The notes: generated by a model not told the origin, from the letters alone. A stretch of DNA of 47,822 nt from Planctomycetota bacterium (GCA_016190155.1 JACPRB010000064.1:1-47822); one strand, 5' to 3'. Counted from the stretch's first letter, positions 6,093 to 47,822 are shown. Made by a program: numbers and translations.

Positions 6093-7032
6093 TCGCGAGT
6101 AACTCTTCGAAAGTGCGCACCCTTCCCCCTCGTCCGCGTAGCGCCATCGCCCCAGGCACGCCCTTCACGTACCAGTGGATCACGGGTCGCACGAGGATGA
6201 GCGCCTTCTCGTCTCCGTGGTCGTGCCGCAGCAGCGCGAAGTGATCCGCGAGGACGGCGGCGCGCTCGGCCGCGGTGGGTCGCGCGGGCGGCGGCTCGCC
6301 CTTCAAGGCGAGCGCGATCTCGCGGTAGATCCACGGATTGCCGAGCGCCCCGCGAGCAACCATGACGCCGTCGCAACCGGTGACGTCCATCATGCGCTTG
6401 GCGTCGGCGCCACAGCGGATGTCGCCGTTGCCGACGACCGGCACGCCGGCGACGTCCTTCACGCGGCGGATCGCGTCGGTGTTGGAAAGACCCGAGTAGC
6501 CTTGCCGGCGCGTGCGGCCGTGCACGGTGATCCAAGCCACGCCCGATTCGCCGGCGATTCGGGCGATGTGAAGGAATCGGTCGTCGTCTCCGTCGTCGAA
6601 GCCGGTGCGCATCTTGATCGTGACGGGCACGCGAACCGCGGGCACGAGTTTTTCGAGGATGCGGCCGATGTGCTCGGGTTCCTTGAGAAGCGCGGACCCG
6701 CACCCATCGTCGACGACCTTGTTGACGGGGCAGCCGAGATTGAGATCGATGACGTCGGCGCCGAGCTGTTCGAGGCGTTGGGCGGCATCGGCCAGCATGG
6801 CTGGATCACGTCCGAGGAGCTGCATCCCCACGGGGCGATCGTGTTGGTCGGTCCTGAGCATCGCCAGCGTGCGCGGGTGGCCCTCCACGACGGGACGATC
6901 CTTCACCATTTCGCAGAAGGCCATCTCGCAGCCGAAGCGGCGCGCGATGGTGCGGTAGGCCAGATCCGTGCAGCCGACCATCGGCGATTGCAGGATTCGG
7001 GGCGGCGTCCGTATCATGGCGGCGATGCTCAT
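6037..7032 (-). CDS. dus: tRNA-dihydrouridine synthase
   Basis: ORF track 6037..7263. Dus motifs are present: SPMVGCTDLAYRTIARRFGCEMAFCEMV, LNLGCPVNKVVDDGCGSALL, TIKMRTG, ITVHGRT. Likely start is ATG 7032 (MSIAAM...) or ATG 7017 (MIRTPP...). The upstream extension is Arg/Pro-rich shadow sequence. Confidence 0.85.
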   Translation of the reverse strand: MSIAAMIRTPPRILQSPMVGCTDLAYRTIARRFGCEMAFCEMVKDRPVVEGHPRTLAMLRTDQHDRPVGMQLLGRDPAMLADAAQRLEQLGADVIDLNLGCPVNKVVDDGCGSALLKEPEHIGRILEKLVPAVRVPVTIKMRTGFDDGDDDRFLHIARIAGESGVAWITVHGRTRRQGYSGLSNTDAIRRVKDVAGVPVVGNGDIRCGADAKRMMDVTGCDGVMVARGALGNPWIYREIALALKGEPPPARPTAAERAAVLADHFALLRHDHGDEKALILVRPVIHWYVKGVPGAMALRGRGGRVRTFEELLAIIRDFAAAQAAPTAPDNP

Positions 7033-7570
7033 TCTCGCTTCGGCTTCGGCCGCGCGACGCGCGCTCCTGCGTCGGGCGGGCTTCCGGTTCAAGGTCGTTC
7101 CCGCGAAGGTGCGCGAGCTTCGCGGTCGCGGCCGTACGTTGCGCCGGACGGTGCTGGAGAACGCCCGTCGCAAGGCGGCCGCCGTGCCCGGGGAGCGCGT
7201 GCTGGCCGCGGACACGATGATCGCGTACGGGGGAAAGATATACGGGAAGCCGAGCGATCGCAAGGCGGCCGTTGATCTGCTGGCGCGGCTGGCGGGAAAG
7301 ACGCACGTGCTGGGGACGGGAATCGTCCTGCGCGACGGACGTCGCGTGATCGAACGCTATGTGGAGACGAGGGTGACGCTTCGGGCGATGGACCGCGCGG
7401 CGGTGGCGCGGCTGGTGTCCGGCTACGATCCGCGTCGGTTCGCGGGAGGCTATGCGATCCGGCGGCGCGACCCTCTGATCGAGAGGATCGAGGGGTCGTT
7501 CACGAACGTCGTGGGACTCCCGATGGAGGTGGTCGGGCCGATGTTGCATGGAGCTCAGCGCGTCAGATAA
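7016..7570 (+). CDS. maf: Maf-like nucleoside triphosphate pyrophosphatase (septum formation protein Maf family)
   Basis: ORF track 6968..7570. Canonical Maf N-terminus LILASASAARRALLRRAGFRF, reached from ATG 7016 (MAAM...) or ATG 7025 (MLILAS...). C-terminal GGYAI...IEGSFTNVVGLP. The stop overlaps the convergent cox subunit IV gene by 16 nt. Confidence 0.85.
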   Translation: MAAMLILASASAARRALLRRAGFRFKVVPAKVRELRGRGRTLRRTVLENARRKAAAVPGERVLAADTMIAYGGKIYGKPSDRKAAVDLLARLAGKTHVLGTGIVLRDGRRVIERYVETRVTLRAMDRAAVARLVSGYDPRRFAGGYAIRRRDPLIERIEGSFTNVVGLPMEVVGPMLHGAQRVR

Positions 7571-7821
7571 TCGTTGAGCGTGAGCGCCAACAGGATCCCC
7601 AACCAGAAAAAGCTTCCCCCGGCGAAGAGCCAGACGAGCTTGCTGCTATAGCGCAGGTGCATGAAGTAAAGCGCGACCAGCGAGGCCTTCACTCCTGCAA
7701 TCGCCAGCGCCAGGATCGTGTTGAAGACGCCGAGGTCGAGATAGGCCGCGCCGACCGAGGAGCCCGTCAGCGCCAGGAGCGCGACGAAGACGGCGGCGGT
7801 GAGCTTCCGCGGCACGATCAT
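7555..7821 (-). CDS. Cytochrome c oxidase subunit IV (prokaryotic COX4 family)
   Basis: ORF track 7555..8121. ATG 7821 ([18 protein letters not shown]...) forms an ATGA overlap with the subunit III stop. 88 aa, hydrophobic, with a KASLVALYFMHLRY motif. Confidence 0.8.
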   Translation of the reverse strand: MIVPRKLTAAVFVALLALTGSSVGAAYLDLGVFNTILALAIAGVKASLVALYFMHLRYSSKLVWLFAGGSFFWLGILLALTLNDYLTR

Positions 7822-8435
7822 CGGTGGCGTCCCACGAGATAGAAAAGCGGGAAGAGGAAGATCCAGACGATATCCACGAAGTGCCAATAAAGCCCGGCGT
7901 TCTCCACGGCGGCAGCATGCGATCGGCGGAGGGCGAGCGCCATCAGGCCGATCATCACGCCCACTCCGATGATCATGTGAACCGCGTGCGTCCCCGTCAT
8001 GACGAAGTAGAGGGAGAAGAAAATCTGTTGCTCGGGTTCGTGCGTGAAGCGCGGACCGGGCACGAGGCCTTCGCGGAACTTGTGGGCGTATTCGAGGCCT
8101 TTGACGGCGAGGAAGACGCACCCGAGCGCCATCGTGGCCAGAAGGAAGACGAACAGCCGGCGGCGGCGCTCAGTCTGCGCGGCGTGCACCGCGAGCGCCA
8201 TCGTGAAGCTGCTGGTGATGAGCACGGCGGTGTTGATTCCGCCCAGCGCGACATCAAGATGGCTGCTGGCTTGGGCGAATGCCCGCTCATGCGCGAGGCG
8301 ATAGACGATGTAGCCGAGGAAGAGGCCTCCGAAGAAGAGCACCTCGGTCATGAGGAAAACCCACATGCCGAGCGTCGCGGCCTCGTGCTGCTGCTCGAGG
8401 TCGTCGAACTGAGGCGCGTGTCCGCGTTCGGTCAT
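7818..8435 (-). CDS. ctaE: Cytochrome c oxidase subunit III
   Basis: C-terminal 205 aa of ORF track 7818..9989, starting [12 protein letters not shown] at ATG 8435 (ATGA overlap with the ctaD stop). Typical subunit III helices ([34 protein letters not shown]). The upstream part of the track ORF is an out-of-frame shadow of ctaD. Confidence 0.9.
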
Positions 8436-10027
8436 GGCAGCTCGGGCTCCTCCGCTTTGGCGAAGTCGTAGGCCTCCTCCGTCACGACGGGTGTCTCGCG
8501 GAAATTGTCCTCGGGCGGCGGCGACGACGTGCGCCACTCCAGGCCCGTCGCCCCCCAGGGGTTGTCGCCGATCTTCTTTCGGGCGAAGAGCGAACCGATG
8601 AAGTAGAACATCGGGAAGATGTATCCCACCCCGAGGATCGAGGCCCCGGCCGTCGATAGAACGTTCAAGACCTGGAACTCCTCCGGATACGCGTGGTAAC
8701 GGCGCGGCATCCCCAGATAGCCCAGGATGAACTGCGGGAAGAACGTGAGATTGAAGCCGATGAAGATGATGAGCGCCGAGAGCTTGCCCCACGCTTCCGG
8801 ATAGCTCCGTCCCGTCATCTTCGGCCACCAGTAGTGAAGCGCGCCCATGTAGGCCATGACGGTGCCGCCGACCATGATGTAATGGAAGTGCGCCACGACG
8901 AAATACGTGTCGGTGACGTGAACGTCGATACCGAGCGTGGCCAGGAAGAGGCCGGTGAGTCCGCCGATCGTGAAGAGCCCCATGAAGCCGATGGCGTAGA
9001 GCATCGGTGTTCGGAGGGAGATCGAGCCTCTGTAGAGCGTGGCGGTCCAGTTGAGGACCTTGATCGACGAGGGGATGGCCACGAGGAAGCTCAGGATCGA
9101 GAAGATCATCCCCGCGTACATGGACTGACCGCTGACGAACATGTGATGGCCCCAGACGAGGAACCCCAAGATCGCGATGGCCAGGCTGGAACCCGCGACG
9201 AACCCGTACCCGAAGATGCGCTTGCGGGAGAACGTGGCGACCAGTTCGCTCACGACGCCGAGCGCGGGGAGAACCATGATGTAGACCGCGGGGTGGGAAT
9301 AAAACCAGAAGAGGTGCTGAAAGAGCAGCGGATCTCCGCCGAGCGCGGGATCGAAGATGCCGACCGACAGGAGTCGTTCGATCGCGATGAGCGCCAGCGT
9401 GATGCCGATGACGGGTGTAGCGATCACGAAGAGCAGCGCGGTGGCGTAGGTGGACCAGATGAACAGCGGCAGGCGCGACCACGTCAGCCCCGGCGCGCGC
9501 ATCTTGTGGATCGTCACGACGAAGTTCAGTCCCGTCAGGATGGACGAGAAGCCCGCGACGAAGATCGCTGCCGCCATCAGAAAGACGTGCGTGTTGGCGT
9601 AGGTGGTCGAGTACGGCGTGTAGAAGGTCCAGCCGGTGTCGACGCCGCCGAAGATGATGGAGCCGAGGGCGAGGAGGCCGGCGGCCGTGAAGAGGTACCA
9701 GCTGGCGAGGTTCAGGCGTGGGAACGCCAGGTCGCGCGCGCCGATCATGAGAGGCACCAAGAAGTTCCCGATCACGGTGGGGATGGCCGGAATGAGGAAG
9801 AAGAAGATCATCGCCACGCCGTGCATCGTGAAGAGCTTGTTGTAGGTCTCGGAGATGACGAGATCGCCGGCGGGCGTCATGAGCTCCAAGCGCACGAGCG
9901 TCGCGAAGGCCCCCCCGATGAAGAAGAAGAACGTGACGGAGAGGAGATAGAGGATGGCGATCCGCTTGTGGTCCCGGGTCAGGAGCCACGAGCCGACGCT
10001 GTATCCGGCGTTGAGATAATGCTTCAT
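8432..10027 (-). CDS. ctaD: Cytochrome c oxidase subunit I (heme-copper oxidase)
   Basis: ORF track 8432..10375. ATG 10027 ([27 protein letters not shown]) forms an ATGA overlap with the ctaC stop. Canonical motifs [37 protein letters not shown]. Confidence 0.95.
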
Positions 10028-14414: not shown

Positions 14415-15740
14415 GTCTTGGGTTCCACAAGCGCGCGCACCTCGAACATCGAGATGAGCGGCAGGAAACGGATGAAGAGGAACAGGAGCGTAAAGAACAG
14501 GCCGATCGTCCCGGCGAACGTCGCCCAATCCCAGATCGTGGGGTAATACATGCCCCAAGACGACGGCAGAAAGTCGCGGTGCAGGCTGGTGAGCACGATG
14601 AAGAAGCGCTCCAGCCACATGCCGACCAGCACGAGGAGCGCGATCCCGAAGAGCGCCGGCACGTTTCGGCGCACGCGAGGGAACCACAAGGCCAGGATCG
14701 CCAAGCCGTTGCAGGCGATCGTCGCCCAGAACGCCGGCGCGTACGGCCCGATCATCCGGTTGATCATCATGAAGCGTTCCGCTTCGTTTCCGGAGTACCA
14801 CGCGAAGAACGCCTCCATGACGTAGCCGTAGTCGACGATGAGACCCGTGGCGAGCATGATCTTCGCCATGTTGTCCAAGTGACGCGGGGTGATGAGCCCT
14901 TCGAGGCCGTAGGCGGCGCGCAGCGGGATCGCCAGCACCAGCACCATCGCGAAGCCCGAGTAGATGGCGCCCGCGACGAAATAGGGCGGGAAGAGCGTGG
15001 TGTGCCAGCCGGGGAGGATCGAGGTGGCGAAGTCGAAGCTCACGACCGTGTGGACGGAGACGACGAGCGGCGTCGCCAATCCGGCCAGGAGCAGGTAGGC
15101 CGTATCATAGCGATGCCAGTGGATGGCGGAACCGCGCCAGCCCATCGCGAGGACGCCGTAGACGATCTTGGCGAGTTTCCTCTTGGCGCAGTCGCGGAAG
15201 GTGGCGAGGTCGGGCAGGAGCCCCACATACCAGAAGAGGAGCGACACGGTGAAGTACGTCGCGACGGCGAAGACGTCCCAGACGAGCGGGCTGCGGAACT
15301 GGGGCGGCACGCCGTGCAGGCTCGGGTACGGGAAAAGCCAGTAGAAGAATTTCGGGCGGCCCAGGTGGAGCAACGGGAAGACGGCCGCGCACAGCACCGC
15401 GAAGAGCGTCATCGCCTCGGCGAATCGGTTGATCGACTGACGCCACTTCTGCTGCATCAAGAGGAGGATGGCGGAGATGAGCGTGCCGGCGTGGCCGATG
15501 CCGATCCACCAGACGAAGTTGATGATGGCGAAGCCCCAGGCCACGGGGACGTTGACGCCCCAGATGCCGATGCCCGCGGCGAAGAGAGTGAGGACTGCGG
15601 TGAGGAAGGTCATCGTCAGCAGCAGCGCCACGGAGAAACCGATGATCCATCCGACGGGCGTGCGGCGGGTGAGGACGACGGAACTGATCTTGTCGGTGAC
15701 GGTGGCGACCGTGTAGGAAGGCTCGATGACGGGAGGCCCG

Positions 15741-15748
<8 letters not shown>
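14411..15748 (-). CDS. actC: Alternative complex III subunit ActC (NrfD/PsrC-like quinol-interacting membrane subunit)
   Basis: 445-aa polytopic membrane ORF. ATG 15748 overlaps the actB stop by 8 nt. NrfD-like helices throughout. Confidence 0.9.
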
Positions 15749-18436
<2,688 letters not shown>

Positions 18437-18440
<4 letters not shown>

Positions 18441-19087
18441 CGGTGGCACGTCGTGCAATCGGTGGACGGACGGACGTGGTAGCGTTCGACGAGCTCCCGT
18501 CCGATTCTCGGTTGGTCGAGGGGCGGTTCGTCGTCCATGCGGAATACGGCTTCGCGCGGCCGGATGAAACGTTCCGGTTGGCGGTGGCAGTCGAGGCACC
18601 ACTCCATGAAGAGAGACACGGTTTGCCACATCAGGGGCATTCGATCTACGGAGCCATGGCAGGTGGAGCAGCCGATGCCCTTTCGGAGGTGGATGCTGTG
18701 ATCGAAGGCGCAGAAGTCGGCCAGATCATAGACGCGGGTCCAGGCGATGGGGCGGCCGGTTTGCCAGCTTTGACGGACGGGCTCGAGCATCGGCGCGTCC
18801 GCCCAGATCTGGGTGTGACAGTTCATGCAGGTCTGCGTCGGCGGCAGGCCGGCGAAGGGGCTTTCTTCGACGGAGGTATGGCAGTAGCGGCAGTCGAGGC
18901 CGAGTTTGCCCGAGTGCAGCTCGTGCGTGAAGGGGACGGGTTGGTCGCGCGCGACGTTCGATCGGGTGAACCAGGCGGAGCGGGTGATCGCGCCGGTGAG
19001 CCACAGCGCGCCGATCGCGAGGAAGACCGCGCCGAAGATGCTGAAGCGGGCGAAGGGGTTGGCGGCCGGGTGGAAGATCTGGGCCAT
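18437..19087 (-). CDS. actA: Alternative complex III subunit ActA (pentaheme cytochrome c)
   Basis: 216 aa. N-terminal TM anchor and five CxxCH motifs (CRYCH, CMNCH, CSTCH, CLDCH, CTTCH). First gene of the cluster. Confidence 0.9.
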
Positions 19088-37177: not shown

Positions 37178-37726
37178 GTGGGACAGAGGAGGTCACCTCG
37201 TCCTGGAATGGGGTCCCTTTCCAGACTGTCAACCCAACATCCGCCGCTCGCCTGGGACCCGGACCTGGACGAGGTGCCGGTCCGGCCGCTCTCGATGATC
37301 ATGTCCGACCCGTGCTTCGCCGTCTTTCGGGGCCGCCGGCGGCGGTTCGTCACCGGGGCGGCTCCTGCCGGCGTGGGCGGCGACCGGGCGGTCAGGGCCC
37401 GCGACTGGCTGGCCTACCAGAACCGGATGAGCGAGGAGCCGCCGTGGGAGCGCGCTGAACGATACCGCCGGCTCATGGGAGAGAAGGGCTACAAGAGCAT
37501 CCGAGAGCTGGCCAGGGCCATCGCCGAGGATCATTCTCGGATCGCCCGAGTGCTCAAGGTCCTCGACCTGCCGGAGGCAGTCCTGACCGAGCTCCGGAAG
37601 CACTCGACCAACGTCCGCGTCCGAGCCCACTTCACCGAGAAACGGCTCCGGCAGATGGTGATGAAGCAGCGCAGCGAGGCGGCAATCTTGCGCGAGATCC
37701 AAAGAGCCCTCCGGCCCGAAGCCTGA
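37178..37726 (+). CDS. ParB/KorB-like helix-turn-helix protein lacking a recognisable intact N-terminal ParB domain
   Basis: 182-aa ORF. The conserved-looking part starts near ATG 37427 (MSEEPPWERAERYRRLMGEKGYKSIRELARAIAEDHSRIARVLKVLDLPEAVLTEL). The upstream part carries only a weak GGDRAVRA remnant resembling the ParB GERRxRA box. It may be truncated or degenerate. Confidence 0.45.
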   Translation: MGQRRSPRPGMGSLSRLSTQHPPLAWDPDLDEVPVRPLSMIMSDPCFAVFRGRRRRFVTGAAPAGVGGDRAVRARDWLAYQNRMSEEPPWERAERYRRLMGEKGYKSIRELARAIAEDHSRIARVLKVLDLPEAVLTELRKHSTNVRVRAHFTEKRLRQMVMKQRSEAAILREIQRALRPEA

Positions 37727-37743: not shown

Positions 37744-37983
37744 TCACGGCCCCTCTTTTCCTCCTCCATTGCTGGGCGGCACCCCAGATCCTGGCTTGTC
37801 CGCCCCGGTCTCCACCCGGTTGACCTTGAGCGAGTCTCGATCTTGCCTTTGGACGAAGTTGGCAATCAGTTCGGCGACGCTCTCAACGGCGTCCTGGGTC
37901 TCCTTCGGCGTCAGCGTCATGTAGTGCCGCTTGATTTCCAGCGGCGGCCCCGCCTTCCTACCCTTGATCATTGGCTTTTTCAT
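37744..37983 (-). CDS. Hypothetical small protein, possibly ribbon-helix-helix-like, last ORF of the helicase operon
   Basis: ORF track 37744..37998. ATG 37983 (MKKPMIKGRK...) overlaps the nuclease 3' end by 26 nt. KRHYMTLTPKETQDAVESVAELIANF could form a strand-helix unit. Low-complexity tail. There is no SD, so coding status is uncertain. Confidence 0.3.
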   Translation of the reverse strand: MKKPMIKGRKAGPPLEIKRHYMTLTPKETQDAVESVAELIANFVQRQDRDSLKVNRVETGADKPGSGVPPSNGGGKEGP

Positions 37984-39130
37984 GATATCTACCAGCAATT
38001 CCTAACGATGGCACGTCTGCAACGCGCACAAGAATGGTTCGTGATGTTGGCGTAAGAACACCGTCCGGTCGAACACGAAGGCTAACGAAGCGAACGTGAT
38101 CGCCGACGCCCACGGTCGCGATAGAGCTATGTACGGCCGGGTTCAGCGGGGCGATCTCTGCCCGGCGTGGGCCTTCGCTACCTGCTTGAACATCCACGGT
38201 GATGGCAAGCGCAGCTCCTCCGTGGATTGAGCGTGGCGCCTCAGGAACTGTTCCCTCGACTGCCGCCCCATCCAGATGGCCCGACCAGGCGGGTGACGCC
38301 GCTTGCCAAAATGCCGGGCAGATAAGCTTGTATGGACACCACTTGCAAGCTGCCGGAGAAGGGGCCGCGAACTCTGCCGGCCGAGCCTGTGCGCGGACCT
38401 TCGCGTTGTACGCGTCCAGAAGAGCTATCGCCTCTAGGACCTCCTGCTCACATTCGGCTGGATGGAGGGAGACCTCTACGCCGGTACCAGCGAGCGGGAG
38501 AAGCAGTCCCCGTATGGGCCACGACCCGAGAGCTTCCTTCACGAGATAGCCGTAGATGCGGAGTTGGCGAACGTAGGCACTCTTGACAACCTCCACCTGC
38601 GAATTCTCGTCATACTCAAAGAGTCCGCCGCTTTTGTAGTCCACGACTTCGTCGGCGCGCACAACATCGGGCCTTCCAACGAGCTTGCCGTTGCATGCAA
38701 TGAATTCCTGCTCGCGAATCGTGGCTGAAACGAATGCTCCTGGGCCAGTAGCAGCCACGGGCGCGGCCACAGTGAAGGTAACGAGATCCCCGGCCCGAAG
38801 CCGGACGCTCGCCCGCGCTACATGGTAGCCCGGCCAAGTCACCGGCGATCCGAAGCGGCGATCGAGTGGATGGCGACTGGCCCGCTGGTGTTGTGCTGCG
38901 ATGGCCTGGCTCCAGAGACGCTCGATGGCGTTGTCGAGGGACTCAGTAGCAAGATCAACGCGCGGGATCTTCTCAAGAACCTCGTGGTAGGCGCTTCCAA
39001 GCCAGCCTTTCGGGCTCCCAAGGATGAAAGGGGAGATTCCGGTGGCTCGTGAAAGACCAGCGCGGAGCATGCAAGAGCGCATGACCTCGGCCAGGGTCGG
39101 GCTGGTTGCACGAATCTCGAGCAGCTCCAA
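37958..39130 (-). CDS. Cas4/RecB-family PD-(D/E)xK nuclease with 1+3 Cys (Fe-S-type) cluster and extra C-terminal domain
   Basis: ORF track 37958..39337, numbered here from the track ORF. N-terminal Cys (MRSC, C89). GRPDVV (D224). EVVDYK (E230/D233/K235). QLRIY (Q258..Y262). CKWCPYKLIC (C331, C334, C340), which is the Cas4/AddB-type CX2CX5C. The start is uncertain: TTG 39130 (11 nt after the helicase stop) or ATG 39082. Confidence 0.75.
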   Translation of the reverse strand: MELLEIRATSPTLAEVMRSCMLRAGLSRATGISPFILGSPKGWLGSAYHEVLEKIPRVDLATESLDNAIERLWSQAIAAQHQRASRHPLDRRFGSPVTWPGYHVARASVRLRAGDLVTFTVAAPVAATGPGAFVSATIREQEFIACNGKLVGRPDVVRADEVVDYKSGGLFEYDENSQVEVVKSAYVRQLRIYGYLVKEALGSWPIRGLLLPLAGTGVEVSLHPAECEQEVLEAIALLDAYNAKVRAQARPAEFAAPSPAACKWCPYKLICPAFWQAASPAWSGHLDGAAVEGTVPEAPRSIHGGAALAITVDVQAGSEGPRRAEIAPLNPAVHSSIATVGVGDHVRFVSLRVRPDGVLTPTSRTILVRVADVPSLGIAGRYHEKANDQG

Positions 39131-39141
39131 CTTACCAACGA

Positions 39142-42100
39142 TCAGAACGGCCTCCTCATCACCTCGAAAATTGATTTGAGCGTGACTTGGCAACCGGCTG
39201 CTACTGCTTGGGCATACGCTCCCGCGATCTGAGGTCCGAAGTGGTTCGGGTCGGTGTTCCACAACGGGTGCGTGATGATCTCCACCTGATTCCCGCGGCG
39301 ACCAGCCTGCAGACCCCCATACTGGAGACGCTGCCATCCGGGCATCGCGGCGAAGTAGAAACCGGCGGCGGCCGCGTCAAGTGCCTGCCAGTAGGACACC
39401 GAGAAGTCGACTTGTGCATTCGGGTCCAGCGCTAGTCGAGCCAGATCCAAGCCCAAGCGCCAGTCGAGAATGTTGTGGTACACGAGATTGCTGAAGTCGC
39501 GGAGACAGTCAGGACACGACGTCTGGCAGATGCCGACATGGGCCCCGGCGATGAGGGGTCCGTAAAAAGTGTTGCTTGTCTGACCGACGACGAAGCGCAG
39601 GAGACTCTCGGCCTCGGTCGGAGTCCCGAAATAGGAACTATATCCGGCACCATTCTCCAGACTGTCGGAAATGAAAATCTGACCGACGACTTGCCCATTG
39701 GCGTCCTGCATCACGCGTAGACCGACTTTGAGCTCTCGCTCATGAATGTCCAGACGCACGGCCGCCGCTCTCCGCAGCAGAAAACCCAGAGAGTATAGCG
39801 CGGCTCGGCCTTCAACTCGAAGCGGTACGGCATTGACGCCCACCGGCCAGGTCTGGATTCCAAGAACGAGGACGTCCGTTGGCTTGACTGAGGCGAGAGC
39901 GCGACGGTCAACCGCATTTCCGGGAGCGAGTGGAGGATTGTTGATGCCTATCTTTGTGAGCGCCTCCTGCGTGACCCAAGTCTCGCCCTGGGCGAGCTTC
40001 TCGAAATCGAATTGCCGCCCCTCGTTGTCGTTAATGACGTAGACAGTGTCTTGGCCGCTCCAGATCTCGAAGTTTGCGACGGGTGTCATTGCGATAGGTG
40101 TGACCCCGACTTTTGGGCGCGACGCACGTGCGGTCCACTCGAAGACCCCATCGAAGTCGCGACTCCCCCCAAACCACGTGCGGAACCCTCTGGGCTGCGA
40201 GAGGCGAATCAAGTCGTAGTCGGGGGCAGCCCCACCGCAAACGGGACACGTAGGCGCCGGGTTCTGCGAGCCATCGACCGCTTGGCACCGCCGACACAAT
40301 CCAATGACCAGAGGCGGTCCGAGGGGATTCGGCGCTTGGATGACCGTATTCCCTTGCGGCTGATAGTCGACCACGCCGACCGAAGTATGAATCAGCCCAT
40401 CCTTTACTGTTTCTGAACACGGAGCGAATTGGCTGATTGCGATGTCGAGTTCTCGATCTACGACGCCGTCCGGGGGCCACTCGTACGCCGGGCCTGGCCG
40501 TTCGTGGAATAGAAAACGAACGCGCGTCGGAAAGCCGAACATCGGCAAGATTCCCACATTCGCGAGCCTCTCGCTCAATGACCTCTGTGGAAGCCTCGGA
40601 TCATTCGCCGCATCCGTTACCCGCGAAACGAGCTGGTTCTGGACATAGTTGATGAGTGCGGCTCGCTGTGCATTCAGCTGCTGGCTTGTATGGGAAAGGA
40701 GTACATCGCACGATCGAGCAACAGCAGCAGGGTTATTCTGAATCCATCCATCAACGAGTTGGGCAACTGTCAATCCGGGTGGCGTGCCGGGAGGAGGCTG
40801 GGAAGGCGGTGCGCCCCAGTCTATCGCATCGCCAAACTCGCCGTGGACGTTGTCGCCTCCTTGGGCCACGAATAAGCCGAGTGCGACGAACGCTTGGCGC
40901 AGAACCTCCTTGGCCAGTACGCGCTGGAGGATCGCTTCGCGGCGCATATCGACGTAGGGTTGTGGTGGTGGATCAGAAGTGATCCGATCCGGGCGCTGGA
41001 AGTAGTAGTCATCATGGCTGCGGCCCCGGCATAGGGTCAGCGCGACTGAAAGGCCGGCTCCTCGCCGGCCCGCGCGGCCCACGCGCTGCTGGTAGTTGAA
41101 TCGCATTGGCGGCATGTTAGCCATCATCACCGCGAGCAGTGATCCGATGTCGACACCAGCCTCCATCGTTGTTGTCACGCTGAGGAGGTCGACCGCGTCG
41201 GTGATCATGATCTCGTCAGGCGGCGGCAGGCAGATATCCTGGAAGAGCCGCTGGCGCTTCCTCCCATCGCTCTTGTTCGTCTGCCCCGTGAGCTCCTCAC
41301 AGTTCAGGCGAAAAAGCGAACCCGCCTGGGTAGCGAGGTAGCTGTAGTAATCGGGCGTGAGCTGTGCCGCCGCCACGGGCTGAGGTGGCCCAATGGGAAC
41401 TTGGCATTCCGTGCAGACACCGCCGGACGGATGAAGGTGGACGCGACGGCACTGCCCGCACTCATAGTAGGATGGCCCGGGGCGCATGAGGCAGAGGTTC
41501 TGGACCACTAGGACGTGCTGGGTGAGAGCTACCGCCCCCTGAAGGTAGTTCAGGACGTCCGCAGCGAATGCGGGTGGTACAAGGCCGTGCTGCTGGGCTA
41601 CCGCCGAGAGATACTGCGCTATATAACCTGGTGGATTTGGCTGGCTGGCGGCACCATGGGTCGAAAGCCGCCGCCTTGCACCAAGCAGCCGCATGACGCC
41701 GTCGGCAGCCTCTTGAACGAGTGGACTCGGTGCTGGTATTCCGATTCGGTCCGTCGTTGCGTACGCTATCCGAAGTGACTCAAGGCTGCGCCGCCCAGAG
41801 GCAAAAACGACGTCCATTACTTCGATCAACGACTGGTTTTGAATTCGCAAGAGGTGGTTCTGTTGCGGCTGTGTAAGCTGTGCCGGACCCTTCGCCTGCG
41901 GCGTAGATCCAGGCGATCCCCAGACATACAGGTCACGCCAGCTCCCACTCTTGTTCTGTGGATCTGTCCAGAGCACGTCTTGGATGAAGCCTCCCGGATT
42001 CATTCCGTTGGCGAGGAGGTGTGCCGATGCATCGGCCGCGATCTGGGCAACGTGGAAGGGGCCTTGCGCTGCTCGCGCCATGATGCGCTGGGCTGCCTGC

Positions 42101-44679
42101 TGGCAGTTCAGCCCGGGGTGCGAAGGAGATTGCAGTTGGGCGCTGGCCAGATTCCCAGCCATGGACAACGTAGCCGCTTCTGCCGCATGTGTGCTGCTGA
42201 ATGCAGCCGCGAGAGCCTGTTGCTCTGCTGGCAGCGGCTGCCCTGCGATCTGCGCCGCAAACGCTTGGGCACCCGCGCCCTGCACCGTGATGGCGTAAGT
42301 GATCGCTTGGCGAAGTGCGTCGCGGTAGTGAGAGAAGCGCATGCCCGCCGATAACTTGGCAGCATCCTGCCGACTGTCTGAGAAGACCACAAGTTTGCGC
42401 GACTGAGTAGCTCCCGTACCCACAACTTTGCGGAGAAGTGAATCCGATAGGATTTGGGCGATCTTCTGAAAGCCGGTCCGCAGTGTACGAACGGGAGACC
42501 CAATTTGGCGGCGCGACCAATCCGCATCGCAGCGCGGGCATTTCGCGGGATATGCCTGCCTCGCACTCTCGCCCGCTGGCGGATTCGGGCCATGCATCGA
42601 AGGTACAAAGTAGAGGTAGCCAGGACCTCCGAGCGCTACCCTACCGTCAGCGGGCGTGAACTGGGCGGCCCTCCAGAACCGCTGTACACCATCCTGCGTC
42701 CATTGTGGCGACGCAGGGGTCATTCCTGGACTGGCTGGCCAATAGACAGCATAGCGCGCATAATCGCGATCGAAAGATGCCACGTCTGGCGATGCTTCGA
42801 GATCCGGGTGGTCGGGACTCAGATACCACTCGTTGGGATTCAGGCCAGTGTTGCGCCGGTATCCGCCGAAGAAGATTTCACCGCACGCTTCGCAATAGAG
42901 GAGCTCAAGGACGCGGGAGCCGCAGCCGCAGGTCAGGGTCGGTACGTAGTGAAGGGTGCCCGCAGGACATGCGCCGTTCCGCGGCGGCGCGTGCGAGCAG
43001 CCTGAATTGGTGCAGGCCCAGAGGCCTTGGAGGTTGCGGTAGAAGATGTGCGCGCGCACTGGTAGAGGTGATGTACCATTTGCCCCACGCGCTGCTGAAA
43101 GGCCAGCAAGTAGCCCTTCGAGCGCCTCGATGCCGTCTGCTGGTGCCAGCGCAGGGAACATCGATGCTGCTATCTGCTCGGGAAACCGAGGCTGCAGTTG
43201 GGGGGCGTGTGCAGGTCCGGTGGAACACGCCAATCTTAGCGCTTCTGCCGATGCGATATATCCAAGTGCGGATTCGAGAATTTCCTCGGGGCTGGCGCCC
43301 TGTCCCACTGTGGGGCCTCCAACCGCTGCGCGGAACGCGCTCGCGGCTGGTACTGTGGGAGAAGGCGCCGCGCGAAGATCTTGGCGGAGTTGGCGTAGCG
43401 CGCCCGCGTTTGCACGGACGGCAGCGAACGCGCTTGGGTTGATTGCCTGTGGCATCCCTCCCACAACACGGAACCGATTTCGATCGCGCCCGAAGAACGC
43501 CTCCAGGTACTGGAGACCCTCCGCGCCGCTAGCCACCGACGCGCTGGACGCAATGATACGAAGCTGGTCGGAGTCGGGAGCCAGACCGAGGCGATCGAGC
43601 AGAACCCGGATGAGGTACGCGACCTCAGTTCCAGGCGTTCCTCGATATGTGTGCAGCTCGTCGACGACCAGATGAAATAGGTGGGAGGGGTCCGCCTGGA
43701 GCCACTGTCGCGTCTGGTCAAAGATTGCTGTCTCGACACCGCGCATCAGCATTATGTTAAGCATCGAGTAGTTGGTGATGAGGATGTCCGGCGGGTGATC
43801 TTGCATGTCCCACCGCGACCAGATTTCTCCGCCGTCCATGCTGGGGAAGAAGAAGCGTGTCGCAGGTGGTGATCCGGCGACAAGCTGCGCGTCGCGTTCG
43901 ATACTGGCAAGTTCAGCCCGTAACCTGGTTGTCGCCGCTGCCGTTCTATTCCCCGATACGGGAGTACGCCCAGTGTAGCGCCCGAAATAGAATCGATTTC
44001 CGGATCGCTGGGATTGCAACCACGCACGCGCTTGGGTTCCGTCGAGGCCGCTACGAAGGCGAGCGAGCTGATCCTCGACGAGCGCGTTAAGCGGATAAAG
44101 GATTAGTGCGCGAACAGCCGGAGGTCGCACTGTTGGGTTCTCGTGGGTGCGCTGCGGAATCCGCGGTGTCCAGCGCCTCCGGCTCCCCTGCATCGACCAG
44201 TGATTCCACCAGTCCCATTGTGCCGGCCGGGGACCGGGCGGTCCCCACCCTAGCGATTCGCGAATCAGCGACGCGGCGATTGGCAGCAAGAAGCACTCCG
44301 TCTTTCCCGAACCCGTGCCCGTCGTGACAACGACATCGTGACCACCGGCGGTGGACTCTGCGAAGACTTCCCGTTGGTGTGTGTAGAGCTCGCGTGTGGG
44401 TGGGAACAGCCCCTGCGACACAAAAGTGACCAAGTCTGTGAGTGCAGCAGGTGTCCAAGACGATCCCAGTAGGGACTGGGCTACCTGCTGGAAGGTCTGC
44501 CCACAGGCCTGGTAGGCGGGTACTGGCTCAATCAGCGGACGCCGGTAGAGCCGGCCATCGGTATCGAGCAACTGACGCCGTTCTGCGACGAGGTCGGGAT
44601 ACCGGAGGTCAAACGGGCTGTCAAGGTACCGCAGGTAGGTGTCGCGAAGATCTTCGAAGATCGCAAGGGGATTGCTCAT
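39142..44679 (-). CDS. Giant SF2 DExH-box helicase fused to a DUF1998-like zinc-binding C-terminal module (DruE-like / DrmA+DrmB-like)
   Basis: 1845 aa.
- ATG 44679 forms an ATGA overlap with the upstream gene stop.
- Q-motif and Walker A: LYTHQREVF...[12 protein letters not shown] (K126).
- DELH at aa 340-343, and IIASSAS.
- Motif IV-like [13 protein letters not shown] (aa 763-775).
- Motifs V and VI: [11 protein letters not shown] and [11 protein letters not shown] (aa 1197-1207).
- C-terminal region with CRRC...CPVC (aa 1462-1481), [11 protein letters not shown] and CQTSCPDC (aa 1718-1725), as in MrfA/DrmB-type DUF1998 domains. Confidence 0.85.
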
Positions 44680-45632
44680 CGGAGCTCCTGTCGAAGCAGC
44701 GCGGACGCGAGGCCGGCGATTGCCTGTGGGATCTCAGCGTAGTGAAGGATGCCCGTTTGTGCGACACCTGCTTCATAGGACGGCGGTGACCCCGAGCACA
44801 GAATCAGGGCCCGCTCCACTAGGAATGGCGGCCGACAACTTGAGGGAACAGTGAGGCGGCGATTGATGGCATCGTACCGAAGTACCCGGCGGCGGCACCG
44901 CCTGAGCACGAGATACTTGCCTACCTGGCCAGGTACCTGGAATGCATTGCCCTTCGAGCAGAGCAAAACCTGGCGCTGGTGCCGGAGCGAAAAGCGGAAG
45001 AGACCTCCAGAAGGGGAAAGGGCTTCCTCGCGCGTCGCGGCCTTCCAACCGAGGTCAGAGGTTGAAAAGTGCTCAATTCTCCAGTCGGTGCCGAACGGTA
45101 AAGGGGTCTGCCGGCGCACCGCCGAATCGTCGATCGGCGGGAGGGTCGTCAAGATTGCAGCCGGCGCGTCATGCTGCAGGACGAGGCCGACGCGCTCAGC
45201 AAGAGCGGCGAGCGAGTGAGCATCCCTGGCCACGATACGAATCTGGTCCGGGCAGGATGGAAACGGCAACGTCTCCAGTTCTTCCGTTACGGGTGCCTCG
45301 TGAAGCCGCCGCAGCAACTTGTCCGATCGCGCGCCTGCAAGTATCCCGAGCCATCCACGAGCATGCTGCGTCACAGCCAGGCTCGGAGGTGTCACGCGCC
45401 AATCGCTGCCCCGAGCTCCGGCGAAGAACTCCGCGTGCCCGAGGCGCTGTAGGTTGAGACGCAGTGCCTGGTAGAGCGGAAGAGCGTATTGGTCGGTGGT
45501 GCTATCCTCTTCGGTTTCGTCTTGCTCGCCATCGTTGTCGCCCAAGTGGAGCTCTTCAACGGCGACGCGGAACTGCTGCCATGATCCCTCGCGCCGCGCT
45601 GACATCCAGAGCAGGAGCGAATTGGCGCTCAT
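44676..45632 (-). CDS. Hypothetical protein (318 aa), no recognisable domain, translationally coupled on both sides
   Basis: ORF track 44676..45680. ATG 45632 ([21 protein letters not shown]) forms an ATGA overlap with the upstream stop. Its own stop forms an ATGA overlap with the helicase start. Confidence 0.7.
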
Positions 45633-47764
45633 CGGGGACTTCTCCGGATGGTTCTCGCTTGTCGCTTGTATTCCCGCCACAGCGAGAGCGTGTCAGGGTC
45701 CCCGGGATCGAGTTGAAGTCCTTTTCGACCCGCGTCCAGAATCGCTGCGCACCATGATGAGAGCAGCCTCGACTGCCCCCTGTTCGTCGGGCGCGCGGGT
45801 GACTGAACCGGTAGAAGACCACCGATTCGGAGGACGCGAGCAGTCCGCTTGTCGCATCTGAGGGAATCAACGGGTATCGCCCAGACAGGCTCAAACCACG
45901 GGAACCCTATGCATGTGCGAGTGAGAAGTTCGGTACGAACATCGCATGTGTGGAGCTGCCCTGGCACCGCACCAACAAGGACACAGTTGGAAGCGGGCGC
46001 AACGAAGGGTCGGCTGTCCTTGTGCGCCGTCATGGGAGGGCGAACAACGACGCCGCAGATGGCAGGCCGGGACGTGCCCCCCAAGATGAATTCCCCCATG
46101 GACCAAGTGTACGCGTCCCACGGCTCCCAGGCTTCGGCACCCTCTCGAATCCAGTAAGTCTTGGAGGCGCTCAGGCACCAGATGCTGTGCTTGCCTGGGG
46201 TGTCCCATCCAGGCGCCGCGTACGTTCCGGCAGCGGTCAGCACGGACGACTGTCCATCGATGAGGATGTTGCCCGCAGCGGCCGCGTCGCCGCGCAGGCG
46301 AATTCGCGGAGGATACCCCGCCAGCCAGGTTGCGCGTTCGAGGCGTATGCCGCCCTCCAGGACAAGTTCGACGTTCGCAAGCGGCCTAAGGGCATCGAGA
46401 ATGTCGCCGGTCGGGCTGGGAGGAATCGGCGTTCGTGGAATGACTCCTTTCAACCCGAGCCATCCCTCCGGGATTCCAGCGGCTTGGTCCAGCACTGTCG
46501 GATGGGGACTGCCAGTTGTCGCGATGGCCTCCTTTACCTCAGGAAGGCGGTTCGCAGTACAGAGAACGACATGCTCCTCCCCAAGAAGGAGTCGCGGGAG
46601 GGTGACAAAACCGCTGAGATCGCCGTGACGGCAAAGGACGAAGACCTCGCGCCCGCTCAAAGACCATCGCACGCTCCCCCCATCATCGAGCGTGCCTCCC
46701 CATTCCACTCCGTTCCGCAGCAGAGAGCCGATCGCGGGGAGTGCAACGTCCTGATACCACTCCTCCTGCAGTGCGATGAGCTCGGGTGGACTACCTGATC
46801 CCGAGACAGCGAACTGATTCGGTAGCGCGGCACTCCGGTGGGGCAGCAAGGAAACTCTGCAGAAGCCTCCTTTCTCGAGGGCGAGGCGAACTTCGATTCG
46901 AAGAGCGCGCTCCCGTTCCGTGGGCTCTCCGGTAGTCACGCCGGTCGTGTTAGGTTTGGTCGGAATGGTTGGCGTTCGAGCGATCGGCCGGTACTGTCGG
47001 GGAGTCATGGGGCGCTTTGTCGGAACTTTCTTCCGCTTCTCGACAGCCGGCGACTCAAGCTCAGGATCGGCGGTTGTTTCCTGCTCTGCTTCCAGTGGTG
47101 CCGGAGGAAGAATGCCCTCGACCTCGGTTTCGCGCTCGCTTTCGGTCTCGACGTCAAGATCGTCGGAAGGCAAGTCCTCAACCGACGGATCAGGCGAGCT
47201 CACTATTGGTGTTGATGACGTTTCGGAGGGCGCAGTGCGTGGAGGAGCCTCTGGGAGAGCAACAACCGCTGCCTCGGTCACGGACACCTCGCCACCAGAC
47301 TTTGTGGCGTCCGCCGCTTCATTCAGAGCCTCCTCGATGTTCTGCGTTGATTTGACGGGCGCATCCTGCGGTGCAACCAAGGTCGGCGCGGGAGCTTCGT
47401 TAATTTCGACGTCGCTTGTCCTTCTCTCCAAGTTAGGCGCACCCTCATGAGCCGTACCCGACACCGATTCGAGGTCTTTACGAGTGGGACAACTTTCGCT
47501 CTGTTCGGCGGCATCCTCGGCTCCGGCAATTCCCGCAGATGTAGGTGGTTGGTTATTCTCTGCCGAAGTAGCATCAATTTCTGGAAGCTCTGGCGGCGTC
47601 GCCAACGGAGGTTCAGACGGCAGTATCTGTGCAGGGGCGTCGCCGGCGACAGCGTGGTGTTCCACCGCTTCGCTATATGGTTCAGCCGCACCTTTCCTGT
47701 CCGCCTCACCGACTTCCACTTTGAGCGTCGGCTCGCCAGTCTTAACGCCCTCGCTCGCTTGCAA
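45629..47764 (-). CDS. Hypothetical protein (up to 711 aa): acidic Pro/Ala/Glu/Ser/Thr-rich low-complexity N-terminal ~270 aa plus ~430-aa globular C-terminal region of unknown fold
   Basis: The reading frame is open from TTG 47764. The first in-frame ATG is at 47008 (aa 253, RPMTPRQ). The low-complexity part still shows codon-like G-first periodicity (GAG/GCG/GAA...). The C-terminal part is Trp/Cys-containing and ordered-looking. The start is uncertain. Confidence 0.6.
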   Translation of the reverse strand: MQASEGVKTGEPTLKVEVGEADRKGAAEPYSEAVEHHAVAGDAPAQILPSEPPLATPPELPEIDATSAENNQPPTSAGIAGAEDAAEQSESCPTRKDLESVSGTAHEGAPNLERRTSDVEINEAPAPTLVAPQDAPVKSTQNIEEALNEAADATKSGGEVSVTEAAVVALPEAPPRTAPSETSSTPIVSSPDPSVEDLPSDDLDVETESERETEVEGILPPAPLEAEQETTADPELESPAVEKRKKVPTKRPMTPRQYRPIARTPTIPTKPNTTGVTTGEPTERERALRIEVRLALEKGGFCRVSLLPHRSAALPNQFAVSGSGSPPELIALQEEWYQDVALPAIGSLLRNGVEWGGTLDDGGSVRWSLSGREVFVLCRHGDLSGFVTLPRLLLGEEHVVLCTANRLPEVKEAIATTGSPHPTVLDQAAGIPEGWLGLKGVIPRTPIPPSPTGDILDALRPLANVELVLEGGIRLERATWLAGYPPRIRLRGDAAAAGNILIDGQSSVLTAAGTYAAPGWDTPGKHSIWCLSASKTYWIREGAEAWEPWDAYTWSMGEFILGGTSRPAICGVVVRPPMTAHKDSRPFVAPASNCVLVGAVPGQLHTCDVRTELLTRTCIGFPWFEPVWAIPVDSLRCDKRTARVLRIGGLLPVQSPARPTNRGQSRLLSSWCAAILDAGRKGLQLDPGDPDTLSLWREYKRQARTIRRSPR

Positions 47765-47822
47765 TTCCTTAGTAGAATTGTCGATGAATTTCTCGCTCGC
47801 ATCGACCTTTCCTTTAGTATGC

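Follow-up and report, generated by a model that had tools for sequence, protein, structure and literature searches.

The window analysed here is a whole contig of 47,822 bp from a Planctomycetota bacterium (GCA_016190155.1, JACPRB010000064.1:1-47822). Between bases 37958 and 47822 its minus strand carries four large, co-directional and tightly coupled open reading frames (ORFs). These probably represent the 3′ portion, druF′-druL-druE-druK, of a horizontally acquired anti-phage operon of the Druantia type IV family. The operon belongs to an already catalogued family and is not a new kind of system. Druantia type IV was defined computationally in 2021 as DruE, DruF and DruL; 168 examples were counted in RefSeq, spread over 11 phyla (Payne et al.; PMC8565338). 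In a 2026 preprint, types I–IV form four clades of DruE, with type IV accounting for 18% of 566 loci.

An earlier reading of this DNA, here called the original prediction, had proposed a Druantia-type operon around a DruE helicase. The PADLOC profile DruE4 matches the helicase over its full length, and that proposal stands. The operon had also been called non-canonical, and this part does not stand: all four proteins fall into PADLOC-DB families (DruE4, DruL4, DruK and, weakly, DruF), and type IV was already published. The original prediction had added that it would fail if every gene were assigned to a described system, naming a type III system with DruH as an example. In essence PADLOC makes such an assignment; the system is type IV and has no DruH.

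Operon Layout

The four genes, all on the minus strand, are as follows.

45629..47822, minus strand: druF, 5′-truncated by the contig end; acidic disordered linker and conserved core
44676..45632, minus strand: druL, 318 aa; PADLOC DruL4, ATGA overlaps on both sides
39142..44679, minus strand: druE, 1845 aa; YprA/MrfA-family superfamily 2 (SF2) helicase with zinc modules, PADLOC DruE4
37958..39130, minus strand: druK, 390 aa from a TTG codon; RecB/AdnAB/Cas4-type PD-(D/E)xK nuclease, PADLOC DruK

The spans of druL, druE and druK agree with those given originally, as do the ATGA stop/start overlaps at the two upstream junctions, 45629-45632 between druF and druL and 44676-44679 between druL and druE. 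The stop codon of druE is followed, after 11 nt, by the TTG at 39130 that opens druK. This spacing had been put at 11–59 nt; the shorter value is correct and the 59-nt reading wrong, because homologues align from residue 1 of the TTG version.

The length of 711 aa assigned to the first gene, from a TTG at 47764, could not be kept. The window is the entire contig, and the frame has no upstream stop and stays open to base 47821; druF is therefore truncated at its 5′ end, and that start codon is arbitrary. The DruE, DruL and DruF proteins of the window are each recorded on one contig only.

Related loci, designated below by L numbers, come from two sources: a scan of a single genome for each species, made with an alignment of DruE, and the contigs of the closest DruE proteins. 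All ORFs of these loci were searched with tblastn and jackhmmer.

The DruE Helicase

DruE matches the PADLOC profile DruE4 at 1763 bits over residues 2–1844 of 1845; the scores on DruE2, DruE1 and DruE3 are 1593, 662 and 392 bits. It has the make-up of the Druantia signature protein, which is an SF2 helicase of the YprA family, some 1800–2100 aa long and equipped with a DUF1998/MZB zinc module. Pfam detects the DEAD and Helicase_C domains together with a weak MZB match (PF09369, 18.9–22.3 bits against a gathering score of 24.2). The helicase motifs are intact, seven CxxC pairs are present, and the DExH helicase with a DUF1998-like zinc module that had been proposed is recognizable in the following segments.

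44299..44313, minus strand: Walker A motif GSGKT, residues 123–127 (K126), invariant in a 12-sequence alignment
43651..43662, minus strand: DELH box, residues 340–343, from the motif and the 12-sequence alignment
39502..39780, minus strand: MZB/DUF1998-like zinc-binding domain, residues 1634–1726, sub-threshold match to PF09369

In the same alignment, cysteines C1718 and C1722-x2-C1725 of the MZB region are invariant. DruE, for which 7118 homologues were found, has neither a phospholipase D (PLD) domain nor a recognised nuclease domain.

Sequence matches in the PDB are to 9wae (E = 1.8e-180), to 9tu7, the E. coli type III-A DruE (E = 5.8e-44), and to 6znp, MrfA (E = 2e-12). The entry 9wae, matched over residues 3–796 and far better than 9tu7, is the solved structure of a 1970-aa protein labelled ‘Helicase’. 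The entries 9waf and 9wds-9wdy belong to the same helicase, and the literature search found no paper citing any of them.

The Accessory Proteins DruL and DruF

Pfam finds no match in the DruF or DruL ORFs. The original prediction had allowed that its 711-aa and 318-aa proteins could be divergent Dru proteins, and by PADLOC they are indeed Dru proteins, DruF (a weak match) and DruL. DruL matches DruL4 over its full length (94 bits), has 424 homologues, and is encoded immediately upstream of druE with an ATGA overlap, as in type IV. The 260 residues at the C-terminus of DruF2 align to DruL as well; on that alignment, DruL is the detached C-terminal part of a type II DruF. In L039 (6832-9972), L040, L041 and L053, a fused DruF-DruL protein of about 1000 aa is encoded directly upstream of druE, with a DruF2 profile score of 455 bits and a DruM methylase nearby. 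The fused proteins and the correspondence of DruL4 to the DruF2 C-terminus relate types II and IV to each other by gene split or fusion.

What the window shows of DruF is an acidic disordered linker of about 270 codons and then, from the motif PRQYRP onwards, a conserved core some 440 aa long. Its PADLOC matches are weak, with 38 bits on DruF2 and 20 bits on DruF4 over residues 372–494 of the 5′-truncated gene product. Iterated searching ties the 440-aa core to canonical DruF4/DruF2 (E = 1e-50 to L047). In the clade to which the window belongs, DruF has a predicted N-terminal transmembrane helix with a cluster of R/K residues in 68 of the 81 homologues of at least 560 aa. The helix is followed by a disordered or coiled-coil linker of 200–400 aa, either acidic and low in complexity or built of AEEARR repeats, and by the core of about 440 aa, which begins at the motif P(R/K)QY(R/K). 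Canonical DruF4 and DruF2 lack the helix and start instead with a conserved cytosolic domain. As judged in the relatives, where they are seen, the helix and basic residues would place the linker and core in the cytoplasm. The helix of the window’s own DruF presumably lies in the few tens of codons beyond the contig end.

Structure prediction added no known fold for either protein. The AlphaFold2 model of DruL (pLDDT, a prediction of the local distance difference test, 84; predicted template modelling score, pTM, 0.82) has no fold match in the PDB, the best template modelling (TM) score being 0.23. The model of the DruF core (pLDDT 72) likewise has no credible match there (best TM ≤0.23). Family profiles of DruF and DruL gave only noise against PDB sequences.

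The DruK Nuclease

DruK matches the PADLOC profile PDLC00060 at 94 bits over residues 10–300 and Pfam PDDEXK_1 at 65 bits. The Cas4-type PD-(D/E)xK nuclease of the original prediction is upheld by these matches; its residues D224 and K235 are D155 and K166 in the numbering used here. Two segments carry the motifs.

38633..38668, minus strand: catalytic motifs GRPD (D155) and DYK (D164, K166), invariant in 11 homologues
38318..38347, minus strand: C262-x2-C265-x5-C271, which with C20 forms a Cas4/AddB-type iron–sulfur (Fe-S) ligand set; all four cysteines invariant

Across the 11 homologues, which reach down to 22% identity, the invariant residues are C20, H49, E140, D155, D164, K166, Q189, Y193, C262, C265 and C271, and Q189 and Y193 make up a QxxxY motif. 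DruK bears the full predicted signature of a RecB/AddB/Cas4 nuclease with its Fe-S cluster. A search of the PDB with the single DruK sequence gave no match; with the family profile, the nuclease domain of mycobacterial AdnAB came out best (6ppu, E = 1.3e-4), then Cas4 (4ic1) and RecB. The family comprises 127 clusters at 50% identity (E ≤ 1e-30).

DruK shares with AdnAB/AddAB/RecBCD and Cas4 the RecB-family PD-(D/E)xK core and the four-cysteine Fe-S motif. It differs from them in standing alone, without fusion to a UvrD-type motor, and in having an extra, conserved C-terminal domain of about 110 aa. Both traits of Cas4, a RecB-like core and four Fe-S cysteines, are present in DruK, whereas it scores 21 bits on the Cas4 family model TIGR00372, whose cut-off is 65. 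Nor does any cas gene appear next to druK, whose neighbours are druE and a ParB helix-turn-helix (HTH) gene; clustered regularly interspaced short palindromic repeats (CRISPR) were not searched for. DruK is known as PADLOC-DB v2 profiles and is not discussed in the literature searched. Its link with type IV is drawn from the numbering of the PADLOC profiles, in which DruK directly follows the type IV profiles, and from locus L047.

Of 18 close loci that could be tested, 10 have druK or a remnant of it after druE, namely the window itself, L003, L006 (split), L010, L016, L017, L067, L085, L086 and L081 (remnant). It is absent from L001, L002, L004, L007, L013, L024, L051 and L084. The gene also recurs beside DruE proteins of only 33–39% identity, in L021, L025, L030, L041 and L047. 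Because of its recurrence in about half of the loci and in distant ones, we regard druK as optional yet genuinely associated with the operon.

Decay of the genes is visible in several places. An N-terminal fragment of druK, 174–192 aa long, is found in the Steroidobacteraceae contigs L081-L083 (L081:15565-16905), and L006 has its druK broken into two ORFs (15548-16781) and its druF into three (7457-8915). Iterated searching also finds DruK-like nucleases downstream of YprA-family helicases at L073:14007-15266 (E = 1e-45) and L080:15460-16638 (E = 1e-33). These helicases are about 29% identical to the window’s DruE, and neither locus has DruF or DruL. DruK may partner other helicase systems too.

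Synteny and the Upstream Methylase Module

The genes druF-druL-druE are contiguous in every locus that has a DruE of at least 49% identity and enough sequence. In every close relative the reading frames of the three genes also overlap.

Of 20 close relatives that could be tested, 17 have a C5 DNA methyltransferase (Pfam PF00145; PADLOC DruM2, 188–452 bits) adjoining the operon. In 10 of these loci a gene for an HhH-GPD glycosylase of the Nth/MutY family separates the methylase from druF, and in three loci the methylase is paired with Vsr instead (L013:15376-17102, L051:16153-18025 and L024, at 6295-7122 and 18175-18693). Vsr and some glycosylases of the Nth/MutY family, such as Mig of MthTI, repair the T:G mismatches that arise by deamination of 5-methylcytosine. 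Vsr and HhH-GPD seem to stand in for each other as the repair enzyme that accompanies the methylase, and the pairing of methylase and repair enzyme suggests that host DNA is a substrate of the methylase.

Among relatives whose upstream sequence is available, the closest three, with DruE proteins 84–87% identical to that of the window, have the order methylase, HhH-GPD, DruF, DruL, DruE. In L085 (GCA_030157125.1, contig JASDBD010001466.1; DruE 86% identical) the operon is complete, with six genes including a full-length DruK and all junctions of ≤1 nt. The original prediction reported no methyltransferase in the window. This is literally true and yet uninformative, because the position that the methylase has in the relatives would lie beyond base 47822, off the contig end.

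A more distant locus, L047:10463-13514 from a member of the Solirubrobacterales, scores 294 bits on DruF4 and 199 bits on DruL4, and carries DruK and then, downstream, a fused methylase/HhH-GPD gene. The methylase link may be general to type IV and have been missed in its published definition.

Signs of Foreign Origin

The G+C content of the locus is 61.4%, against 65.2% in the rest of the window, where no other stretch of 9.9 kb falls below 64.3%. G+C at third codon positions (GC3) is 61–69% in the locus and 85–86% in the neighbouring DoxX and Big_5 genes. The lower G+C of the segment, remarked on in the original prediction, is thus confirmed. Such a base composition points to a foreign origin and supports the horizontal acquisition that had been proposed. 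DruE proteins that are 71–87% identical are scattered patchily over metagenome-assembled genomes of Acidobacteriota, Gammaproteobacteria and Planctomycetota, a distribution that also indicates horizontal transfer. DruL has one weak plasmid match, in Nostoc, at 23% identity.

Classification and Alternatives

With type IV Druantia the operon shares the F-L-E order with translational coupling, full-length matches to DruE4, DruL4 and DruK, a DruF core found homologous by iterated searching, and the optional PD-(D/E)xK nuclease after druE, as in the profile-typical L047. It differs in that DruF of this clade has a transmembrane helix and a 200–400-aa linker where canonical DruF has a cytosolic N-terminal domain, and in that its nearest relatives carry a DruM-like C5 methylase and HhH-GPD upstream, whereas type IV is defined without DruM. 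The membrane-anchored DruF and the methylase–glycosylase module, absent from the literature searched and seen in relatives only, may justify a separate subtype. That the window’s clade is a distinct, undescribed Druantia subtype with methylase, HhH-GPD, membrane-anchored DruF, DruL, DruE and DruK is a tentative idea that we hold to be possible but doubtful.

Druantia type II consists of DruM-DruF-DruG-DruE (Doron et al. 2018) and appears as ‘Type IV CoCoNuT’ in Bell et al. 2025. The locus might be a type II variant, with DruM upstream, DruF split into its core and DruL, and HhH-GPD replacing DruG, a reading that competes over classification and not over function. A DruE2 score of 1593 bits, the DruM2 scores of the relatives’ methylases, and the alignment of DruL4 to the end and of the window’s DruF to the middle of DruF2, so that DruF and DruL together equal one DruF2 protein, all speak for it; so do the fused F-L proteins found beside DruM in L039, L040, L041 and L053. 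DruE4 gives the higher score, however, and a separate DruL is the published type IV signature. DruF is split in two genes here, HhH-GPD and DruK stand instead of DruG, and PADLOC scans of eight genes, taken from the operons or their flanks and including the HhH-GPD gene, gave no match to DruG. Moreover, L047, canonical type IV by its profiles, has a methylase/HhH-GPD fusion downstream as well. We consider a type II variant unlikely.

That this is a novel, non-canonical helicase–nuclease system outside all Druantia types is very improbable. What recommends it is the weak match of DruF to PADLOC profiles, over some 125 residues, the unusual DruF N-terminus with its transmembrane helix and disordered linker, and a Cas4-like nuclease that is no part of types I–III. 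These points are set against full-length matches to the DruE4, DruL4 and DruK profiles, the published type IV gene order, and a DruF core that iterated searching joins to canonical DruF4 of L047. The profile matches largely refute this reading.

Scarcely credible, in our view, is a housekeeping repair module like MrfAB or AdnAB, or a DISARM variant arising by fusion of DrmA and DrmB; the original prediction had raised both kinds of kinship. DruE does share the YprA/MrfA core and an MZB domain, and DruK resembles the nuclease domain of AdnAB. The MrfA structure 6znp, however, matches DruE only locally (residues 1164–1242, 48 bits), there is no MrfB of the DnaQ type, the neighbour that goes with the roughly 750-aa MrfA, and the nuclease encoded next to DruE is a PD-(D/E)xK enzyme. 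The patchy spread of DruE, a GC3 some 20 points below the neighbouring genes and the defence-gene surroundings in relatives also argue against housekeeping repair. DISARM has in common with the operon a YprA-family helicase and a DUF1998 module, and the methyltransferase of the relatives suggests the same self-marking logic. Here, though, helicase and DUF1998 are fused and not divided between DrmA and DrmB; the DrmA profile reaches ≤35 bits, only over RecA2 motifs. PADLOC found no DrmB, DrmC (PLD) or DrmD (SNF2) in the operon, and DrmD/DrmE has no counterpart. The absence of DrmC and DrmD partners had been noted originally and holds.

Type III (DruH-DruE) has a homologous helicase, as the DruE3 score and the match to 9tu7 indicate; like it, the window’s DruE is likely a 3′-to-5′ translocase acting at junctions of single-stranded DNA (ssDNA) and duplex with an accessory protein. 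The window differs in lacking DruH (no match at E < 0.1 among its ORFs) and a PLD domain in DruE; it has a RecB-type nuclease in trans and two accessory proteins without a recognisable fold. None of the window’s ORFs matches the type I partners DruA-D. Profile scores and the lack of partner genes led us to reject the readings as MrfAB, DISARM, Dpd and type I or type III Druantia.

Several observations weigh against the type IV anti-phage assignment and the picture built on it. The defence function is deduced from homology and genomic context, since the literature search found no experimental study of type IV Druantia, and within the window no other defence genes lie beside the locus. Methylase, glycosylase and the transmembrane helix of DruF are features of the relatives and are not seen on this contig. 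Three close relatives (L003, L004 and L052) have no methylase, and none lies within 10 kb of the F-L-E genes in more distant loci, from cyanobacteria, Poribacteria and Dehalococcoidia; methylation may not be obligatory. The roles given to DruF and DruL are guesses, because their folds are not recognisable. Bell et al. report that type I/II DruE ends in an inactivated Vsr-like domain, which the searches here did not confirm: Pfam at E ≤ 10 gives only MZB, and hhalign of the DruE C-terminus against three Vsr sequences gives a probability of 0.13, aligning ‘VEIITHPLW’ with Vsr ‘VIFVHGCFW’. Finally, the absence of DruK from about half of the loci argues that it is not the sole effector and not essential to the core mechanism, which fits the nuclease domains of type III-A, reported to be dispensable (2026 preprints).

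Neighbouring Genes

Downstream of druK lies one gene that the original prediction had singled out as a ParB-like HTH neighbour.

37178..37726, plus strand: ParB-HTH ORF, 182 aa; Pfam 24.5 bits, TIGR00180 25 bits and under the cut-off

The gene is adjacent, as had been said; it is on the plus strand, convergent to the operon, and its match is weak. An N-terminal ParB nuclease/CTPase region was not detected. The ORF may be a mobile-element remnant at the edge of the insertion. The window has no transfer RNA genes.

The original prediction had also counted a small minus-strand ORF of 79 aa (37744..37983) as a possible member of the unit. It is not part of the operon. Searches of Pfam, PADLOC and NCBIfam gave no match for it, and 86 related loci contain no homologue, with no jackhmmer match in 80 loci and no tblastn match in the 6 closest. 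Nucleotide similarity to L085, the closest druK-bearing relative, stops inside druK. Over 26 nt the small ORF coincides with the end of druK, stop codon included; it sits between that stop and the stop of the ParB-HTH gene, and has a GC3 of 0.75, between that of the operon and that of the host genes. No promoter-like or terminator-like sites were found around druK.

Defence-type genes flank the operon in some relatives: SIR2/SIR2_2, a nuclease of the PLD type, a pair for McrBC, and an ATPase of the OLD family with a UvrD-like helicase as a Gabija-like pair, at L001:15649-17349, L084:11521-13365, L081:17274-20248, L086:670-3869 and L004:16304-19757. Downstream in L086 are IS66 elements and three integrases.

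Proposed Mechanism and Its Meaning

In type III Druantia, DruE works as a 3′-to-5′ helicase and, together with DruH, loads at ssDNA/duplex junctions (2026 preprints). By analogy with this and other systems, a likely mechanism can be outlined for the operon. The methyltransferase would mark host DNA as self, and the glycosylase, or Vsr in other relatives, would repair the T:G mismatches that 5-methylcytosine deamination leaves behind. DruF and DruL may recruit, license or position DruE at the membrane, where DruF, with its tether and long flexible linker, would hold the complex close to the point at which phage DNA enters. Judging from its homology with type III DruE and MrfA, DruE would be a 3′-to-5′ ssDNA translocase that loads at duplex/ssDNA junctions. 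DruK would cut the strands that DruE unwinds, much as the nuclease domain of AddAB/AdnAB/RecBCD does; where DruK is absent, clearance would fall to DruE and host nucleases.

Among Druantia systems a mechanism has been worked out for type III alone, and type IV is an uncharacterised branch of the family. The operon and its relatives suggest testable features of that branch: self-marking by methylation coupled to deamination repair, a membrane-tethered accessory protein, and a RecB-type nuclease acting in trans. The published definition of type IV, according to which it lacks DruM, may be incomplete. If the window’s clade is indeed a distinct subtype, it would be a restriction–modification-like helicase–nuclease machine at the inner membrane that senses unmethylated DNA at entry, and its trigger and effector logic would differ from those of the cytosolic type III DruH-DruE.

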